Part shown: in pieces, positions 22,418 to 36,509 of the stretch | Numbering within the stretch: position 1 is the stretch's first letter | How the letters are laid out: every line of letters begins with the position of its first letter | NCBI GenBank assembly: GCA_964418065.1 | Contig: CAYQJR010000002.1 | Coordinates: forward strand, 1 to 37,728 | DNA: 37,728 bases | Source of the DNA: an uncultured Candidatus Saccharibacteria bacterium | GTDB taxonomy: Bacteria; Patescibacteriota; Minisyncoccia; Phycocordibacterales; Phycocordibacteraceae | Direction of reading: 5' to 3' | The notes under the pieces: generated by a model | Told to the model about the DNA's origin: nothing | Database searches by the model: none | What the model saw: only the letters and a program-made list of their open reading frames with translations | Made by a program: the position numbers and the translations under genes

Positions 22418-22450
22418 GCCCCAGATACTAGCACCCGCCTGAGCTCGTTG

Positions 22451-22456
22451 TATAAT
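22451..22456 (+). promoter_or_regulatory. Perfect TATAAT, 6 nt upstream of ATG 22463
   Basis: TTGTATAAT-GCGCCT-ATG. No SD in the gap. Confidence 0.45.
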
Positions 22457-22462
22457 GCGCCT

Positions 22463-22666
22463 ATGGCACTCGTATCGCTGCTGCGACTCCTGTTCTGGAT
22501 TGGCATCCTCTTCCTCGCCCTGTCATTCTTCGGCATCTCAATTCAGTCCATTGTCAATTCTCCCATTGGCCAAGCGAATCTCACCTATCTCTCCGACCTC
22601 GTTGCGCCGGTAGCGCAGTTCATCACCGAGCTCTGGCTCTCTGCAACCGAGTGGGTTCGTCCGTAG
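22463..22666 (+). CDS. Hypothetical small membrane protein (67 aa)
   Basis: ATG at 22463 (MALVSLLRLLFWIGILFLALSFFGI...). The track ORF starts at a TTG that overlaps the -10 box. Confidence 0.5.
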   Translation: MALVSLLRLLFWIGILFLALSFFGISIQSIVNSPIGQANLTYLSDLVAPVAQFITELWLSATEWVRP

Positions 22667-22692: not shown

Positions 22693-22893
22693 ATGGAAAG
22701 AATCCGAAGACATCTGGAAACAAGAAAAGCCTTTAATACAATGTCTCCTGAGCAGATTCGCTTGACCGAGAATAGAATAATGACCTTCGGTCTTGGCCCA
22801 GAGAACTTTGTAGAGAGCGAGGGCTATTCTGGGTATTCATTTGATGAAAAGAGAGAGAGGCCGCTGGTATCAAGGAAGCGTTGGCAACTCTAA
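22693..22893 (+). CDS. Hypothetical protein (66 aa), possibly the 5' part of a frameshifted gene
   Basis: ATG preceded by CATAAT, 5 nt upstream. Low GC. Overlaps the next ORF by 13 nt. A GAGAGAGAG run lies at 22851-22859. Confidence 0.4.
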   Translation: MERIRRHLETRKAFNTMSPEQIRLTENRIMTFGLGPENFVESEGYSGYSFDEKRERPLVSRKRWQL

Positions 22894-23267
22894 ATGATGT
22901 TGATTTGGAAGCACTGCTCGGCGAACTCCTTATGTACAAGACCTATCTCTCTTCTCAGGTTGGGAAATTGGCCGCGTTCGAGGGGAAGAAACCAACTCTC
23001 GAGAAAGATAATGTAGCTCACTTTGGCATTGCGCAAAGAGTTGGATTTCTTCAGAAAGCCATTGTTGAGGAGGAAAAGAAACGAAAGCTTGGGTTCTGGA
23101 AGGCTTTGTTATTGATGCCTAAAGCTCTGGAACGGACAAAAGAAATACGAAACGAGGTGGAGAGTGTGCGTCTAAGTAAAGAGATGGAGGATAAGGCGAG
23201 CCGGTTACTCGGAGATCAATACTTGGAAAATTCACTAGAAGCTGCGGATGATAATGATAAAAAATGA
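22881..23267 (+). CDS. Hypothetical protein (128 aa from TTG; first ATG at 22932)
   Basis: Lys/Glu-rich helical ORF in the low-GC island. The start is uncertain. No family recognised. Confidence 0.4.
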   Translation: MATLNDVDLEALLGELLMYKTYLSSQVGKLAAFEGKKPTLEKDNVAHFGIAQRVGFLQKAIVEEEKKRKLGFWKALLLMPKALERTKEIRNEVESVRLSKEMEDKASRLLGDQYLENSLEAADDNDKK

Positions 23268-23293: not shown

Positions 23294-23446
23294 TTAAGCA
23301 CGATTTTCAGGAAGTGGTGAGCTCGGTGGTCTGAACTCGTGCTGTTCTGAACGGTCTTCTTGTGAAGCGTAGAAGTAGCGTGCCGGCGTGACTGTCCATA
23401 AGTTCACCGGCCCGAAGTAGAGTGCTGGCCAGATGTCCTTATTCAC
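23294..23446 (-). CDS. Hypothetical small protein (50 aa, below the track cutoff)
   Basis: Hand translation: GTG start with AAAGGA 6 nt upstream, giving (M)NKDIWPALYFGPVNLWTVTPARYFYASQEDRSEQHEFRPPSSPLPENRA. The stop is followed on the minus strand by an imperfect hairpin (GGACCCTT / AGGGTTCT, one mismatch) plus TTTTCATTTTTT. Confidence 0.3.
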   Translation of the reverse strand: MNKDIWPALYFGPVNLWTVTPARYFYASQEDRSEQHEFRPPSSPLPENRA

Positions 23447-23553
23447 GGTATTCCTTTCTCAACAGGTCCACCTCCGATTCTAAACCCTCCACGCCCAACA
23501 GGGTAGATGTTGATAAACTATACTTTCTACGCTACCTTAAAGTTAAGGAAGCA

Positions 23554-23685
23554 ATGATTTTGATTCTACCATTATTGATACTCGGAGCCATCATTGCGTG
23601 TTTTATGATTAACCTGTGGCTGGGTATTCTTGTGGTATGCGCAGCGGGTATTTGGCTAATCCTAGACTACTACCAACTTCTCTAG
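23554..23685 (+). CDS. Hypothetical two-helix hydrophobic peptide (43 aa)
   Basis: Internal ATG of the 87-aa track ORF, preceded by AAGGAA 4 nt upstream. Sequence: MILILPLLILGAIIACFMINLWLGILVVCAAGIWLILDYYQLL. Confidence 0.35.
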   Translation: MILILPLLILGAIIACFMINLWLGILVVCAAGIWLILDYYQLL

Positions 23686-23712: not shown

Positions 23713-23874
23713 ATGGCAAACAATGAAAAAACATCAAAGAAAATAACAAGGTTGGCTGCGAAGCTCATGACCGTAACCAAGAAAGATCAGTTCACTCTCA
23801 AAGAGATGAAAAGTGTAATAGCCTCAGCTTTTACGCAAGCTCCCGACAGAAGGAGGAAGAAGGCAAGAGCTTAA
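23713..23874 (+). CDS. Hypothetical small basic protein (53 aa, below the track cutoff)
   Basis: Hand translation: MANNEKTSKKITRLAAKLMTVTKKDQFTLKEMKSVIASAFTQAPDRRRKKARA. Only a weak purine-rich stretch lies upstream. Confidence 0.25.
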   Translation: MANNEKTSKKITRLAAKLMTVTKKDQFTLKEMKSVIASAFTQAPDRRRKKARA

Positions 23875-23917
23875 ATAAGAAATCTCGGCTGACCGAGTTC
23901 CCGGCAGGGAAGAGAGG

Positions 23918-24373
23918 TTAAATCTTCGTTAACTCGAAGATATCTTTCCTCTTACGGAACTTGACGTCAAAGTACTCAAAAAAGCCTTTCTGGCCTAACA
24001 ACACAGGATACGGGAGTTTATCGGCAAATATTACTGGCACATTAAACACTTCGTCGAATCCCCCGAACTTTGCCTGCAGTGTATATGCAAAACCTATGGA
24101 GTCTGGAACACCGCCCAGTCTTTGTCCAACACCTCGTAAATATACTTTTCGGCACGTATTAGAGGATATAAACAATTCCTTAGCAATCTCTGAATCTATG
24201 AGGGTAGCGTCGGTACCTGAATCAATTAGGCCAACCAAATCTATAGTGGTGGCGGGAGCAATGAACTTTACATCGAGAAAAGGCCTAGGACTGTCAATCG
24301 TTCCACCCTCTAAAAAGAGGGATTGGCTGGTATATGAATACACCTTTGGCTCCATCGGCCAATTATAAGACAC
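23918..24373 (-). CDS. Retropepsin-like (clan AA) aspartic protease
   Basis: 151 aa from GTG 24373 (145 aa from ATG 24355). Contains VGLIDSGTDATLID with the D-S/T-G-T/A catalytic signature after a hydrophobic strand, and a later VLLGQKGFF (ILG-like) element. The single-lobe size fits a homodimeric retropepsin fold. Confidence 0.7.
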   Translation of the reverse strand: MSYNWPMEPKVYSYTSQSLFLEGGTIDSPRPFLDVKFIAPATTIDLVGLIDSGTDATLIDSEIAKELFISSNTCRKVYLRGVGQRLGGVPDSIGFAYTLQAKFGGFDEVFNVPVIFADKLPYPVLLGQKGFFEYFDVKFRKRKDIFELTKI

Positions 24374-24375
24374 TC

Positions 24376-24540
24376 TTAGAACGCGTACACCCTATCTGGG
24401 GAAAGTACTTTTGTATAAACAGCGTCCGTTTTACCTATCTGTTGTCGAAGAGAGGATAGATTGTCCGAAAGACCGAGTACCTTATTGTCTCTGGAGAGCG
24501 CAACCCATTTACCTTCGTTTTCCTTGCAGGAAACTTTCAT
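24376..24540 (-). CDS. Hypothetical 54-aa protein translationally coupled to the protease (DUF5678-like by recollection)
   Basis: Hand translation: MKVSCKENEGKWVALSRDNKVLGLSDNLSSLRQQIGKTDAVYTKVLSPDRVYAF. Its stop lies 2 nt before the protease GTG. TATAAT lies 9 nt upstream of its ATG. The GKWVA...KV pattern resembles small proteins I recall next to prokaryotic clan AA proteases. Confidence 0.45.
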   Translation of the reverse strand: MKVSCKENEGKWVALSRDNKVLGLSDNLSSLRQQIGKTDAVYTKVLSPDRVYAF

Positions 24541-24549
24541 AGACTGAAT

Positions 24550-24588
24550 ATTATAAATATATAGGACTGAAATACGAATGAGGTCCTA
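24550..24588 (-). promoter_or_regulatory. Promoter/operator candidate for the small-protein/protease pair
   Basis: Minus-strand TATAAT (plus coordinates 24550-24555), 9 nt from the ATG. Inverted repeat TAGGAC-N15-GTCCTA at 24562-24588, covering the -35 region. Confidence 0.4.
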
Positions 24589-24715
24589 AATGGGGATAAG
24601 ATGGAGTACTGGGCTCAATATACCAGCAAGCTCGTACCTTCTGTATTAGTGCGCAAAAGATATATTGTGCGTACTATAGCCACAGAGGTCCCCCACCGAG
24701 AGAGACTCCTAATAA

Positions 24716-33755: not shown

Positions 33756-34142
33756 TTACACGTGTGATTTCGCGCGCTTCACGGTGGCTTTCGCGTGCGC
33801 AACGCTCTTCTTCACCGTTCTCTTCGTTTCTTTCTGCACCTTGTCCCAATTTGACTTCAACTCGCGTGCTGCACGTCGCACTTCTTGCGTATCTATGGAA
33901 CGGACTCCCTCGTAGGTCTTCGCCACGCCGTCCACAATTGCGGCAAATGCTTTGGGGCTTGCCTTTGAAAGATGCCTGCTTTCCTTAATTACTTCATTTT
34001 TCATATTGATTGCCCATTTTGCGGCAATCTTGCGGCGCTTCTTTGCATTATCACTACCGTAGAAATAATAGCCGGCAGCTGCGCTCGCGGCGATGATTCC
34101 TGCGCCAATCCCCACTGCGGTCTTCTTAGTACTTTTGTTCAT
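33756..34142 (-). CDS. YtxH-like membrane-anchored protein
   Basis: 128 aa. N-terminal Gly/Ala-rich helix (AVGIGAGIIAASAAAGYYF), then a Lys-rich helical region. Confidence 0.5.
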   Translation of the reverse strand: MNKSTKKTAVGIGAGIIAASAAAGYYFYGSDNAKKRRKIAAKWAINMKNEVIKESRHLSKASPKAFAAIVDGVAKTYEGVRSIDTQEVRRAARELKSNWDKVQKETKRTVKKSVAHAKATVKRAKSHV

Positions 34143-34178
34143 AGTATATATTCTTGAATTACAGAAATTGAATAAAAA

Positions 34179-34448
34179 TCAGTCTTTACCTGATGCTCTC
34201 CTTGTAGTTCTGCCGAAGAGAGCGAACAAAGATTTCAATCGGCCCTTCCCTTCTCTAATATCAGAACGAACTCCAGCAAGATCAGCACGGATTGCATCGC
34301 TTTCGTGTGCAACTTGTTCAGAGATGTGTTCGATGTGCTTTAGGATGCGCGCGGCCCGCCATGCAACATATGCTCCGAAGAGAGCAAGCAACACAACAGC
34401 CGCGCTTGTTATGAAAAAGAAGATATCCATCTGTAAGAAATCATTCAT
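34179..34448 (-). CDS. Hypothetical single-pass membrane protein, candidate anti-sigma partner
   Basis: 89 aa. Start overlaps the sigma factor stop (ATGA). TM helix at about residues 8-30, then an Arg-rich helical tail. Confidence 0.5.
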   Translation of the reverse strand: MNDFLQMDIFFFITSAAVVLLALFGAYVAWRAARILKHIEHISEQVAHESDAIRADLAGVRSDIREGKGRLKSLFALFGRTTRRASGKD

Positions 34449-34963
34449 TATGAGTATCGGAATAGGACCTTAAGCTTCTCCAGTCCTCGATGTACCTGAA
34501 CGGCCATGGTGTTCTTGGATTTCCCCGTAATGAGCGACATCTCAGACAATGTAAGGTCCTGCACATAGCGCATGCGCATTACTTTTTGATACCGCTCAGG
34601 AAGGTGCTGTATCAGTAGTATTGCTGCCTTTCCGTCCAAGATATTCACCAGCCGTTCCGTATGATCCTTCCCAGGCTCAAATCCATTTTCGATTAACACG
34701 TCAAGCGACGCGGTCTTGCGCTTTCGATATTCATCCACGATGAGATTGTTGAGGACGTGGTAGAGGAATGCTTTCATTATGTCAATTTTCCCGCCCTTTA
34801 CCAGATATTTCCATGTCTTCATAAAAGTCTCCTGAACCAAATCCTCCCCCGTACTGTGGTTATGGGTCTTAAAAAAAGCATGGGCATTTAACCCTTTTGC
34901 ATAGTCACCATGCGCCATCGTCAAAAGTAGTTGGCGCTGCGATTCTTGCTGTTTAAAGGCCAT
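34448..34963 (-). CDS. ECF-type RNA polymerase sigma factor (sigma-70 family)
   Basis: 171 aa. Region 2 (EDLVQETFMKTWKYL) and a region 4 HTH (LPERYQKVMRMRYVQDLTLSEMSLITGKSKNTMAVQVHRGLEKLK). Confidence 0.85.
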   Translation of the reverse strand: MAFKQQESQRQLLLTMAHGDYAKGLNAHAFFKTHNHSTGEDLVQETFMKTWKYLVKGGKIDIMKAFLYHVLNNLIVDEYRKRKTASLDVLIENGFEPGKDHTERLVNILDGKAAILLIQHLPERYQKVMRMRYVQDLTLSEMSLITGKSKNTMAVQVHRGLEKLKVLFRYS

Positions 34964-35161
34964 ATAAGTAGAGACGGGCGACTCTATGCCTTTATGACGT
35001 GAATATTACAGTTGAGAGATGTGGTGTAATGGAGTAAAAATACACTTACATTACGCAGATATTACATTCGGAGGTAAAAAGCACCCGAATCTGGACTATA
35101 CGCCTGAATCCGGATAATAGCGAATTGCAATAATGTGCTCTGCCAGACGGCATCAAAAAAT

Positions 35162-35749
35162 ATGAGTACAATAACAAAAGAGAAAGGTACGGGACTAGAA
35201 TCTAAAAACTCCGATCTCATCAACGAGCTGTGGGAAAGTAGCTGGACCTATATCAAAACGGTTGTAGATGTCGTTCGAGAGCCGATTCTCATTCTCGATA
35301 AAGATTTCCGCGTGATGGCCGCAAATGAATGCTTTTATCATATATTCAAAGTTGAGCATACAGACACCGAAAATAAGATCGTGTACGAATTGGGAAATGG
35401 CCAATGGGACATCCCCGCTCTGCGAAAACTCCTTGAAGATATTTTGCCGAAGAACTCATTCTTCAAAGGCTTTGAAGTTGATCACAAATTCCCTGTCATT
35501 GGCCGAAAGATAATGATTCTCAACGCACGAGAGATTTATTACAAAGACGATGCTTCTTCAAAAGAAGTACCCCCTATTATTCTCCTCGCGATTGAAGATA
35601 TCACGGATATGATGATTGTCGCTGAAACGCTTGCTAACCATGCAAAAAACACTGAAGCACGACTACTTAAACACACACACAAACTAGAAATTCAAATCAG
35701 AAAGCTTGAAAAAAAGGTTTCTAGTCAGAAAACCTCAGGTAGCATGTAA
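35162..35749 (+). CDS. Stand-alone PAS domain protein with C-terminal coiled coil
   Basis: Start set at ATG 35162. REPILILDKDFRVMAANECFYHIF...ELGNGQWDIPALRKLLEDILP...FEVDH...RKIMILNAREI is a PAS fold pattern. No output domain is present. Confidence 0.7.
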   Translation: MSTITKEKGTGLESKNSDLINELWESSWTYIKTVVDVVREPILILDKDFRVMAANECFYHIFKVEHTDTENKIVYELGNGQWDIPALRKLLEDILPKNSFFKGFEVDHKFPVIGRKIMILNAREIYYKDDASSKEVPPIILLAIEDITDMMIVAETLANHAKNTEARLLKHTHKLEIQIRKLEKKVSSQKTSGSM

Positions 35750-35852
35750 TCTGTAATATCTCTTCTTTTAGGTCGGCTTCTGTAATAGAGGTTGGATATG
35801 GTCGATGATTCTACCAACAACCTCAATTACCCGCATTAGCACGTCTATAATT

Positions 35853-36509
35853 ATGAAAAAGATACTCATCGCTTTGTCCCTTGTTCTTTCGTTCGGCGTC
35901 GGCACCTCAGCATACGCGGCAACGATAACCTCACAGCTCGACTTGGGGTCGACAGGACAGGATGTAACCACTCTCCAGACGTATCTCTCTACGGATGTTA
36001 ATCTCTATCCTTCCCGTCTCGTGACCGGCTACTTCGGCTTGCTCACCCAGGGTGGCGTGCAGAAGTTCCAAATTCAGCAGGGCATCGTCTCGAGCGGCTC
36101 GCCCGCGACAACCGGTTTCGGCCGTGTCGGCCCGGTGACGAGAGATCGTTTGAATGTGGTCATGAACGCCGGTACTGTTCCTCCCGGGAATACAGTCCCT
36201 GTCATGAGCTCAATCAGCATCCAGCGCAGCGCGACCTCGGCCACCTTCTCGTGGACGACAAATGAGCCGACCACCGGCCAGATTTACTGGAGCACATCAG
36301 GCATCCGAGCCGACGAGGCAACGGGTCCTGGTCAGGTACCGTTTGTGAGCGGAACGCTCGCACTCGACCCTAACGGACTCCAGACAAGCCACTCAGTTAC
36401 GGTTTCTGGTTTGCAGGCGAACACGACTTACTTCTACTTCGTACGCAGCATTGATGCGTCAGGAGCTATGAGTGTCGTTCTCCCCAACACCTTCCAGACC
36501 ACTCCATAA
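35853..36509 (+). CDS. Secreted protein with an N-terminal peptidoglycan-binding (PG_binding_1-like) domain and a C-terminal Fn3-like domain
   Basis: Signal peptide MKKILIALSLVLSFGVGTSAYA. GSTGQDVTTLQTYL...TGYFGLLTQGGVQKFQ matches the PGBD pattern. C-terminal TSATFSWTTNEPTTGQIYW...YFYFVRSIDASG looks Fn3-like. Confidence 0.65.
   Translation: MKKILIALSLVLSFGVGTSAYAATITSQLDLGSTGQDVTTLQTYLSTDVNLYPSRLVTGYFGLLTQGGVQKFQIQQGIVSSGSPATTGFGRVGPVTRDRLNVVMNAGTVPPGNTVPVMSSISIQRSATSATFSWTTNEPTTGQIYWSTSGIRADEATGPGQVPFVSGTLALDPNGLQTSHSVTVSGLQANTTYFYFVRSIDASGAMSVVLPNTFQTTP

Follow-up and report, generated by a model that had tools for sequence, protein, structure and literature searches.

A retropepsin-like protease encoded behind a small DUF5678-like partner in Patescibacteria: a candidate toxin–antitoxin-like cassette

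Two genes on the minus strand of a 37,728-nt stretch of an uncultured Candidatus Saccharibacteria genome (contig CAYQJR010000002.1; hereafter the window) encode a small DUF5678-like protein and, downstream of it, a retropepsin-like aspartic protease. The small-partner gene (24376..24540, stop codon included) starts with ATG and encodes 54 aa (MKVSCKENEGKWVALS...VLSPDRVYAF); an ORF of this length and position had been proposed in an earlier reading from sequence alone, and the gene is also called in the NCBI record. The protease gene is taken here as 23918..24355, with a product of 145 aa starting at ATG 24355. The longest ORF in this frame (23918..24373) encodes 151 aa from a GTG located 2 nt past the TAA of the small ORF, and the sequence-only reading had taken this GTG as the start, with translational coupling through the 2-nt gap. 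While the 151-aa ORF is present, 145 aa is the likelier product: Met7 of the longer ORF, encoded by ATG 24355, lines up with the first Met of all homologues, and the protease product in the NCBI record of the same contig has 145 aa. In a twin Logan contig (L001) the protease is called as 141 aa, from GTG 24343, and this contig is 100% identical to the window, so that no information is gained from it. Both ORFs are real genes, with ATG 24355 the most likely protease start as judged from the alignment and the gene call, and the true intergenic gap is probably 20 nt; the 2-nt gap is unconfirmed because the GTG start is unconfirmed, and coupling through such a gap is not supported at this locus.

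The downstream protein is a single-lobe retropepsin-like aspartic protease of clan AA, as had been suggested from its motifs. The motif LIDSGTDATLID contains the catalytic triplet Asp45-Ser46-Gly47 (codons 24215..24223, minus strand; D51-S52-G53 in the 151-aa ORF), within the hydrophobic-hydrophobic-D-T/S-G signature LIDSG, and the later LLGQ element (codons 23990..24001, minus strand) corresponds to I/L-I/L-G-R/Q of retropepsins. All three residues of the triplet, the catalytic Asp included, are invariant in a 77-sequence alignment (A6) and present in 20/20 paired loci; L119 and G121 of the LLGQ motif are likewise invariant in this alignment, and L120 and Q122 are ≥90% conserved. Family searches retrieved 290 representatives (cut-off E ≤ 1e-3) and 578 proteins (cut-off E ≤ 1e-5). 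Word-indexed homologue searches with either single protein retrieved no sequence other than the query or the query's twin, and a narrower protease alignment (A5) used as query reached only 6 metagenome loci.

Profile searches placed the family within the same clan at low scores for the window protein itself. Asp_protease_2 (PF13650) was matched by 39/41 protease relatives (best E = 4.9e-9) and by the window protease at E = 0.0099 (17.0 bits, below the cut-off of 24.3), with a further weak match to gag-asp_proteas (E = 0.029, likewise under its Pfam cut-off) and 15.4 bits against PF13975 (cut-off 28.2). The expected matches to the two former families were therefore found, both below threshold, while membership of NCBIfam TIGR03698 (clan_AA_DTGF) was not borne out for the window protease (no match at E ≤ 1); this model was matched by only 7/41 relatives (best E = 5.9e-8), as was TIGR02281 (clan_AA_DTGA; 7/41). 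The motif of the window family is DSG rather than DTG, and the window protease falls below every curated cut-off. Searches of NCBIfam and PHROGs with both window proteins gave no matches. An AF2 model of the protease (pLDDT 88.1, pTM 0.82) has the single-lobe retropepsin β-barrel, with a low-confidence stretch at the expected flap position, and the top Foldseek matches were APRc (5c9d; E = 1.7e-4, TM 0.61/0.73), Ddi1 RVP, and the EIAV and HIV-1 proteases. With APRc of Rickettsia conorii, Ddi1 RVP and the HIV/EIAV proteases it shares the single-lobe fold, D-S/T-G and a flap-like loop, its LLGQ being equivalent to I-I-G-R of retropepsins, but identity is only 12–23% and the window family has an extra N-terminal β-meander of ~20 residues with an invariant Tyr. 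From its sequence the window protease is predicted to be soluble, with no membrane anchor (unlike APRc); it has no polyprotein or UBL/UBA context and is accompanied by a dedicated small partner gene. The size of ~100–140 aa implies a homodimeric active site, and by analogy with all retropepsins two identical subunits would pair, each contributing one catalytic Asp. To our knowledge, free-standing bacterial retropepsins are almost uncharacterised.

Sequence comparison places the upstream protein in a small DUF5678-like family, in agreement with the earlier assignment: DUF5678 (PF18929) was matched by 6/7 relatives (best E = 6.8e-5) and by the window protein at E = 0.003 (17.8 bits, below the cut-off of 23.2). 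The likeness to DUF5678 lies in the K-W-V-A core and the small size, and all matches are weak; we know of no function for this family, and within the paper library searched, DUF5678 is mentioned only in an unrelated plant-pathogen study. W-V-A is invariant in the small-family alignment and a (Y/F)A(F/P) tail is conserved. Single-sequence AF2 gave an overall pLDDT of 69, with a β-β-β-α core at 80–85 and the C-terminal 16 residues below 50, a weak indication from the model that the tail may be disordered in isolation, as expected if it folds on a partner. A fold search with this mediocre model returned nothing significant (best E = 0.33), PDB sequence searches with the small-protein profile gave chance-level matches only, and Pfam searches of the small protein and its relatives found no DNA-binding family. 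A HicB-like protein (2yzt) aligned with the model at TM 0.57, a lead only.

The two genes are paired in a fixed order far beyond chance, with obligatory adjacency and co-inheritance. All 15 independent loci found through the protease have a small-family gene (54–73 aa) directly upstream on the same strand, so that a protease without the small gene was not seen among them, and 7/10 loci found through the small gene have an intact protease next to it. The earlier suggestion that such small genes are neighbours of these proteases thus holds in both directions of search. The three remaining small-gene loci include one (L023) that keeps a 21-residue protease remnant and two with no protease; this asymmetry of lone genes (0/15 against 3/10, small numbers, p about 0.05), with small genes outlasting decayed effectors, is typical of toxin–antitoxin (TA) pairs. 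Gaps between the genes range from −20 to +27 nt, a 4-nt ATGA overlap being most frequent. Distance matrices of the small proteins and proteases are correlated (Mantel r = 0.51, p = 2e-4), and the tail type of the small protein, either (Y/F)AF at or near the C-terminus or (Y/F)AP or YMP followed by 4–5 residues, tracks the N-terminal type of the protease. No conserved third gene was found around the pair, downstream included.

All named family members are Patescibacteria, in which the cassette occupies unrelated sites: inside a ribosomal-protein operon, after BipA, between RuvX and S20, and elsewhere adjoining a serine recombinase, Replic_Relax and primase genes, or ParE, HicAB and PIN loci. 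Most of the 15 protease-locus contexts are plain housekeeping neighbourhoods rather than defence islands. In a syntenic lineage (L002) the cassette lies at the same site as in the window; L27, LOG and L9 are 71–83% identical between the two and the protease 54%, and a gene for an AAA_15/AAA_21 ATPase adjoins the pair in this relative, with a KilA-N gene and TA loci found near the pair elsewhere. GC content of the pair is below that of the flanks in 19/20 loci (43% against 55–57% in the window), a difference to which amino-acid composition may contribute. Searches of phage records, plasmid records and viral contigs turned up no relative of either gene, which counts against the TA-like reading given below. 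Distribution is patchy and mobile, with unrelated sites, low GC, orphan small genes and one protease remnant, and the cassette is best read as a mobile module with scattered low-GC insertion sites in Patescibacteria.

A TATAAT box on the minus strand (24550..24555) lies 9 nt upstream of the small-gene ATG. A −10-like hexamer ends 5–11 nt before the small-gene ATG in 12/20 loci (background 8.6%, p = 1e-8), which makes the TATAAT a plausible promoter element, and an SD-like motif occurs in only 1/20; a simple sigma-70 scan found no full −35/−10 promoter. Because TATAAT recurs 5–11 nt before the ATG, a leaderless mRNA is suggested, and the box is probably the promoter from which a bicistronic transcript with no leader, or almost none, is made. 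A second TATAAT (24362..24367, minus strand) lies past the small-gene stop (24376) and 6 nt before the protease ATG; L002, which is syntenic, likewise carries TATAAT ahead of its protease ATG, at a distance of 7 nt, and the other loci lack one there. This box is possibly a promoter within the operon that would give the protease a leaderless mRNA of its own. The hairpin CTCGG-TCAG-CCGAG followed by ATTTCTTATT (23874..23897, minus strand), found by consensus scan 21 nt past the protease stop, is as a pattern match the probable 3′ end of the operon. An inverted repeat, TAGGAC-N15-GTCCTA (24562..24588; arms 24562–24567 and 24583–24588), is present, as the sequence-only reading had it, but the palindromic operator proposed there is rejected: when the 70 nt upstream were shuffled with dinucleotides preserved, 19% of the shuffles had arms of 6 bp with a spacer of ≤20 nt (p = 0.19), no excess of inverted repeats was found upstream of the 20 loci (Fisher p = 0.96), and the arms are neither kept nor compensated in L002.

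These features suggest a self-contained cassette of TA or abortive-infection type in which the small protein inhibits the protease, a reading that we favour tentatively and to which we give somewhat less than an even chance. The promoter abutting the first ATG would drive a bicistronic, probably leaderless mRNA, whose first cistron gives the small DUF5678-like protein and whose second gives a cytoplasmic retropepsin-like protease of ~140 aa, homodimeric by analogy. The protease would be a potentially harmful effector in the style of type II TA or abortive-infection systems, and the small protein its cognate, co-evolving inhibitor, whose conserved, intrinsically flexible C-terminal ...VLPxDx(Y/F)A(F/P) tail would probably either occupy the active-site cleft like a substrate (a pseudo-substrate) or cover it as a lid; once the small protein was lost or degraded, the protease would be free. 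Function here is what we infer, and with it that the protease dimerises and is toxic, that the small protein inhibits it, what the tail does, and any trigger. The more specific proposal, a homodimeric retropepsin toxin whose protein antidote blocks the active site with an aromatic-Ala-Phe/Pro pseudo-substrate tail, is possible but on balance doubtful.

Resemblance to TA and defence modules, which had been pointed out earlier, appears reasonable by analogy, given the architecture, the scattered sites, the orphan small genes, the TA neighbours and the matches to two PADLOC defence candidates described below. As in ParDE, HicAB and MNT-HEPN, a small upstream gene is tightly coupled to, or overlaps, a larger enzyme gene, and two adjacent small genes are conserved as a pair (15/15 protease loci); scattered low-GC sites, orphan small genes, decayed effectors and the position of some copies beside TA loci are further likenesses. 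Unlike type II TA systems, however, the effector is an aspartic protease and the partner has no recognisable DNA-binding domain (no DNA-binding Pfam family, no significant structural match) or operator, which gives no indication of autoregulation of the classical type II kind. We know of no protease toxin with a retropepsin fold, and a literature search found no paper on a retropepsin–antitoxin pair or on a DUF5678-like/protease cassette.

A dedicated anti-phage system, in which infection would activate the protease effector and the small protein would act as sensor or inhibitor, is an unlikely alternative that overlaps mechanistically with the inhibitor model, its extra claim being phage protection. 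The window protease matches the PADLOC model PDC-M52B (E = 2.2e-4), as do 31/41 of its relatives, and 28/41 match PDC-M08B. PDC-M52 and PDC-M08 are two-gene A>>B defence candidates that were found 55 and 381 times, respectively, inside known defence systems (Payne et al., bioRxiv 10.1101/2024.01.29.577857). The window cassette resembles them in its A>>B order and homologous retropepsin-like B protein, and the AAA_15/AAA_21 ATPase beside the syntenic pair and the TA loci and KilA-N gene elsewhere also favour defence. However, such candidates are mostly unvalidated and come from cultivated-type genomes, and these two appear only in a supplementary list, with no annotation (bioRxiv 10.1101/2024.01.29.577857). 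Moreover, whereas both candidates consist of A and B, only B is found here: the window small partner matches no PADLOC model, it and six relatives gave no match to the A models at E ≤ 1, and PADLOC would therefore not call a system. The predominance of housekeeping contexts among the 15 protease loci also argues against this alternative. Another alternative is a housekeeping protease with a small accessory subunit (adaptor, chaperone or regulator) serving a Patescibacteria-specific proteolytic task with no part in addiction or defence, consistent with the restriction of all named members to Patescibacteria, the frequent position of the cassette inside core operons and its retention at the same site across lineages with 71–83% identical core proteins. 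Insertion sites nevertheless vary between genomes, the GC content of the pair is consistently under that of its flanks, the pair evolves faster than its neighbours (protease 54% against 71–83% for L9, LOG and L27), the protease decays while the small gene stays, and mobile-element and TA neighbours occur, so that we regard a housekeeping role as improbable.

We consider it just as improbable that the small protein is a dedicated substrate or precursor cut by the protease, for example at (Y/F)-A|(F/P), the two forming a maturation pair rather than poison and antidote; the cut would release a mature small protein, or a peptide, that has a function of its own. The conserved C-terminal aromatic-Ala-(Phe/Pro) does resemble the Tyr/Phe-Pro cleavage sites of retroviruses, some small proteins end at ...AF while others add 2–8 poorly conserved, seemingly removable residues after (Y/F)A(F/P) or YMP, and strict adjacency and co-evolution would suit an enzyme and its substrate. 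However, 8/23 small proteins, that of the window included, already end at the putative cleavage site and would therefore offer no residues to cut off, the extended tails go together with the 4-nt overlap and may be its by-product, and small genes persist with no protease in 3/10 loci; there is also no secretion signal, and genes for modification or export are absent nearby. A Gag-Pro-like fusion, made by ribosomes that shift out of the small ORF and into the frame of the protease, would recall the origin of retroviral proteases, and the protease frame of the window is open for 16 nt across the end of the small ORF. This proposal is effectively refuted by in-frame stops immediately before the protease ATG in six loci (L002, L006, L015, L016, L018 and L021), and every protease begins with an aligned Met; the one extended homologue (P0055) is probably an over-extended gene call, its extra residues having no KWVA.

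The family described here is thus a retropepsin family of hundreds of members whose genes always follow that of a specific small partner, the two moving as a unit. The recurrent −10 box abutting the start codon also makes these loci clean candidates for leaderless transcription in Patescibacteria. If the partner is an inhibitor, the fold of HIV protease would join the effector repertoire of TA or defence systems, a natural protein inhibitor of this fold would be supplied, and selfish or defensive elements would become tractable in the otherwise minimal genomes of uncultivated candidate phyla. If the pseudo-substrate-tail reading is true, the cassette would represent a new toxin class, common and mobile among Patescibacteria with their reduced genomes, and its antidote would be the first protein known to us that is dedicated to inhibiting a prokaryotic retropepsin.

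The 54-aa DUF5678-like small gene and the retropepsin-like protease gene that follows it on the minus strand of the window form a real two-gene module. A gene of the small family (54–73 aa) lies directly upstream, on the same strand, in 15/15 protease loci, comprising 10 homologous-protease contexts chosen solely for contig size, 4 distinct metagenome loci retrieved by a protease-pattern search, plus the window. Scanning the small-protein pattern over 185,579 species genomes yielded 10 loci, all from Patescibacteria, with an intact protease directly downstream in 7 of them. Pairwise distances among the small proteins are correlated with those among the proteases (Mantel r = 0.51, p = 2e-4), and no third gene common to the loci was found. 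Counts and correlation bear out the module proposed in the sequence-only reading, which had named co-occurrence among its checks. Two sub-types are apparent: M-K-F/Y-x-Y proteases are mostly accompanied by small proteins with a (Y/F)AP or YMP tail plus 4–5 residues and by 4-nt overlaps, while the second sub-type combines proteases that mostly start M-x-W-x-x-Y with small proteins whose C-terminus is at (Y/F)AF or shortly beyond it, with mostly positive gaps. At locus L023 (2471–2745), an intact small gene is followed by just a 21-residue C-terminal protease remnant (profile positions 118–138): the effector has decayed and its partner has been retained. The ORF downstream of the small gene in L022 reads like a histidine phosphatase. 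In L024 (2462–3365), the DUF5678-like orphan has lost the YA(F/P) tail and overlaps by 4 nt the first of two downstream ORFs, of 132 and 104 aa, whose sequences read like a HEPN/MNT toxin-antitoxin (TA) pair, as if the protease had been replaced by another effector cassette.

In the window, the small gene (24376..24540, minus strand, ATG start) precedes a protease ORF whose longest form encodes 151 aa (23918..24373, minus strand, GTG start). This GTG does lie 2 nt past the TAA of the small ORF, as described when translational coupling was proposed, but it is probably the wrong start. Met7 of the long ORF (ATG 24355) occupies the column of the homologues' N-terminal Met in alignments with 8 and 40 homologues, and the conserved N-terminus M-x-W/F-x-x-Y-x-Y spans it. 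The NCBI record of the window's own contig calls a 145-aa product, and a 141-aa protease from GTG 24343 is called on a 100% identical Logan contig. Starting at ATG 24355, the gap behind the small gene becomes 20 nt, not 2. Across 20 pairs, gaps range from −20 to +27 nt, with a 4-nt ATGA overlap the most frequent arrangement; tight coupling of the two genes is a family trait.

Single-sequence searches with the window protease gave weak matches under the cut-off to Asp_protease_2 (E = 0.0099) and gag-asp_proteas (E = 0.029) and none in NCBIfam; membership of TIGR03698, suggested as a check, was thus rejected on score. An exhaustive HMMER search returned 290 representative homologues at E ≤ 1e-3, almost all free-standing and 135–147 aa long, and a profile search 578 proteins at E ≤ 1e-5. 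Among 41 relatives, Asp_protease_2 was matched by 39 (best E = 4.9e-9), gag-asp_proteas by 37, RVP by 10, and TIGR03698 and TIGR02281 by 7 each; NCBI names for relatives are retropepsin-like aspartic protease or hypothetical protein, and nothing else. In a 77-sequence alignment, D45, S46, G47, L119 and G121 (of LLGQ), F126 and F133 are invariant (numbering of the 145-aa product). The AlphaFold2 (AF2) model (pLDDT 88.1, pTM 0.82) falls under pLDDT 50 solely at residues 75–83, where the flap is expected, and its first Foldseek match in the PDB is Rickettsia APRc (E = 1.7e-4, TM 0.61/0.73), followed by Ddi1 RVP domains and then the EIAV, HIV-1 and HTLV-1 proteases. By both motif and fold, the protein belongs to the retropepsin-like clan, in agreement with the sequence-only reading. 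Direct reading of the sequence revealed no signal peptide or membrane segment which, together with motif and fold, points to a soluble, catalytically competent-looking protease; by analogy with its fold family, it would form a dimer.

The small protein is best described as DUF5678-like. The window's own match is weak (E = 0.003, 17.8 bits vs a cut-off of 23.2), and 6/7 small proteins encoded upstream of homologous proteases match the family (best E = 6.8e-5), which supports the DUF5678-like kinship given in the sequence-only reading. All 23 family members compared share an invariant W-V-A, mostly as (E/G)(N/G)KWVA(L/F)S, a beta-alpha segment after it and a conserved tail ...V(L)Px(D)xx(Y/F)A(F/P); the last residues are exactly ...AF in 8/23, including the window's, and others have 2–8 further residues after the motif. 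Single-sequence AF2 gave a beta-beta-beta-alpha core (pLDDT 80–85) with a low-confidence tail (residues 39–54). Searches of the PDB by sequence and by fold gave no significant match, nor did PADLOC models match the small proteins. To our knowledge, DUF5678 is a family without known function, and in the literature searched it is mentioned only in an unrelated plant-pathogen study.

The cassette sits in a low-GC patch of ~2.2 kb (43–45% GC vs 55–57% in the rest of the window), flanked on one side by genes for a LOG/TIGR00730 protein, L27, L9 and an S41 peptidase and on the other by HhH-GPD glycosylase and M23 peptidase genes. All named relatives of both genes come from Patescibacteria, and the LOG protein's 90%-identity cluster includes a Candidatus Kaiserbacteria protein. 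Insertion sites are unrelated between genomes: in L006 (2806–3423; Candidatus Nomurabacteria GCA_016212065.1) the cassette and an unrelated 121-aa gene interrupt the conserved ribosomal-protein operon between rplE (L5) and rpsN (S14), and elsewhere the cassette lies behind bipA (L007), between an SBP gene and RNase J (L011) or between ruvX and rpsT (L013). It is two genes off from a serine recombinase in P0215 and adjoins Replic_Relax and primase genes in L034, and ParE, HicAB and PIN loci in L031–L033. Cassette GC is under that of the flanks in 19/20 loci; viral contigs, phage records and plasmid records yielded no relative of either gene. The closest relative, L002, carries the pair at the identical site after the LOG gene, with 69% identity for the small protein and 54% for the protease vs 71–83% for L9, LOG and L27, indicating vertical inheritance of the pair over some time, at a faster evolutionary rate than that of the adjoining genes. 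On the far flank, L002 (3500–5449) encodes a 569-aa AAA_15/AAA_21 ATPase and a 75-aa protein on the opposite strand, replaced in the window by different small ORFs, and the site downstream of LOG appears to be a variable island. Two plus-strand ORFs of the patch, of 66 aa (22693..22893) and 128 aa (22881..23267), overlap by 13 nt and may be a second cargo module; Pfam, NCBIfam, PADLOC and PHROG gave no convincing match for them, and the fetched loci contain no relatives. The small hydrophobic plus-strand ORFs at 23422–23685 and 22448–22666, called as 43 aa and 67 aa on the identical Logan contig, look like membrane proteins and match no family. A second low-GC patch (~33800–36000, 41–48% GC) contains an ECF-type sigma factor gene (34448..34963, minus strand, Sigma70_r2 and r4_2), a weakly matching PAS-domain protein (35135..35749) and two further ORFs without family match.

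The TATAAT noted earlier (24555..24550, minus strand) precedes the small-gene start codon by 9 nt, and its significance is reinforced by comparison. Hexamers with at least 5/6 matches to TATAAT end 5–11 nt before the small-gene ATG in 12/20 loci, vs 8.6% of comparable windows farther upstream (binomial p = 1e-8). TGn precedes several of these hexamers, and an SD-like motif occurs in 1/20. This recurrent −10 box with near-absent SD points to a promoter directly adjacent to the start codon; the 20 cassette loci suggest a leaderless or nearly leaderless mRNA across Patescibacteria. A simple scan of the window found no consensus −35. A second perfect TATAAT (24362–24367, minus strand), 6 nt upstream of protease ATG 24355 and paralleled by one 7 nt before the protease ATG in L002, is a possible internal promoter giving a separate leaderless protease mRNA. 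The inverted repeat TAGGAC (24562–24567) N15 GTCCTA (24583–24588), previously proposed as an operator, is present but was rejected in that role: it is unexceptional against shuffles (p = 0.19), inverted repeats are not over-represented upstream in the 20 loci (Fisher p = 0.96), and the L002 counterparts of its arms, TTGGAA and roughly AGGCGT, are neither conserved nor compensatory. A 29-nt dyad-symmetric element, ATAGTACGCACAATATATCTTTTGCGCAC (24649–24677, minus strand; stem GTGCGCA/TGCGCAC, about −13 to −15 kcal/mol), lies ~110–135 nt upstream of the small gene and is 97% identical in L002, while the remaining intergenic region has diverged; the window has a single copy and the other 21 loci none, and the element may act as a lineage-specific terminator or as a hairpin with a regulatory role. 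A terminator-like hairpin (23897..23884, minus strand) lies past the protease stop.

The best-supported reading is a TA-like or abortive-infection-like cassette in which the protease would be the effector and the small protein its cognate inhibitor, whose conserved aromatic-Ala-Phe/Pro tail, predicted to be flexible on its own, might sit in the substrate cleft. It is favoured by the architecture, by the co-evolution of both proteins, by the one locus where the protease has decayed and the small gene is intact, and because the small gene is strictly present beside the protease yet able to persist alone (small gene without intact protease 3/10, protease without small gene 0/15; hand-calculated Fisher p ~0.05). 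The scattered low-GC insertion sites, some adjoining known TA loci or mobile-element genes, argue in the same direction, and so does the fact that the B genes of PDC-M52 and PDC-M08, PADLOC phage-defence candidates, encode homologues of the protease. These A>>B cassettes were found within known defence systems 55 and 381 times, respectively; most candidates of the PDC class are unvalidated (10.1101/2024.01.29.577857).

That homology would suit a dedicated defence system too; against it, as against the TA-like reading, stands the lack of a PADLOC match for the partner. The many plainly housekeeping contexts, which count against a TA-like cassette, would accord with a housekeeping protease specific to the lineage and its accessory subunit; the adjoining TA and mobile-element loci speak for the TA-like cassette. 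A third rival is a protease–substrate maturation pair. Also counting against the TA-like reading, the small protein has no DNA-binding domain and the cassette no operator, and we know of no protease of retropepsin fold acting as a toxin. A Gag-Pro-like frameshift fusion was rejected, since six loci have in-frame stops ahead of the protease ATG.

A literature search found no description of this pair or of any retropepsin-based TA system. The core observation of the sequence-only reading holds and is strengthened by the comparative data, which suggest a TA-like or defence-candidate two-gene cassette of putative function, whose effector is unusual and whose partner is uncharacterised. From it we infer a toxin of protease type held in check by a protein inhibitor; the pair itself is solid, testable and undescribed.
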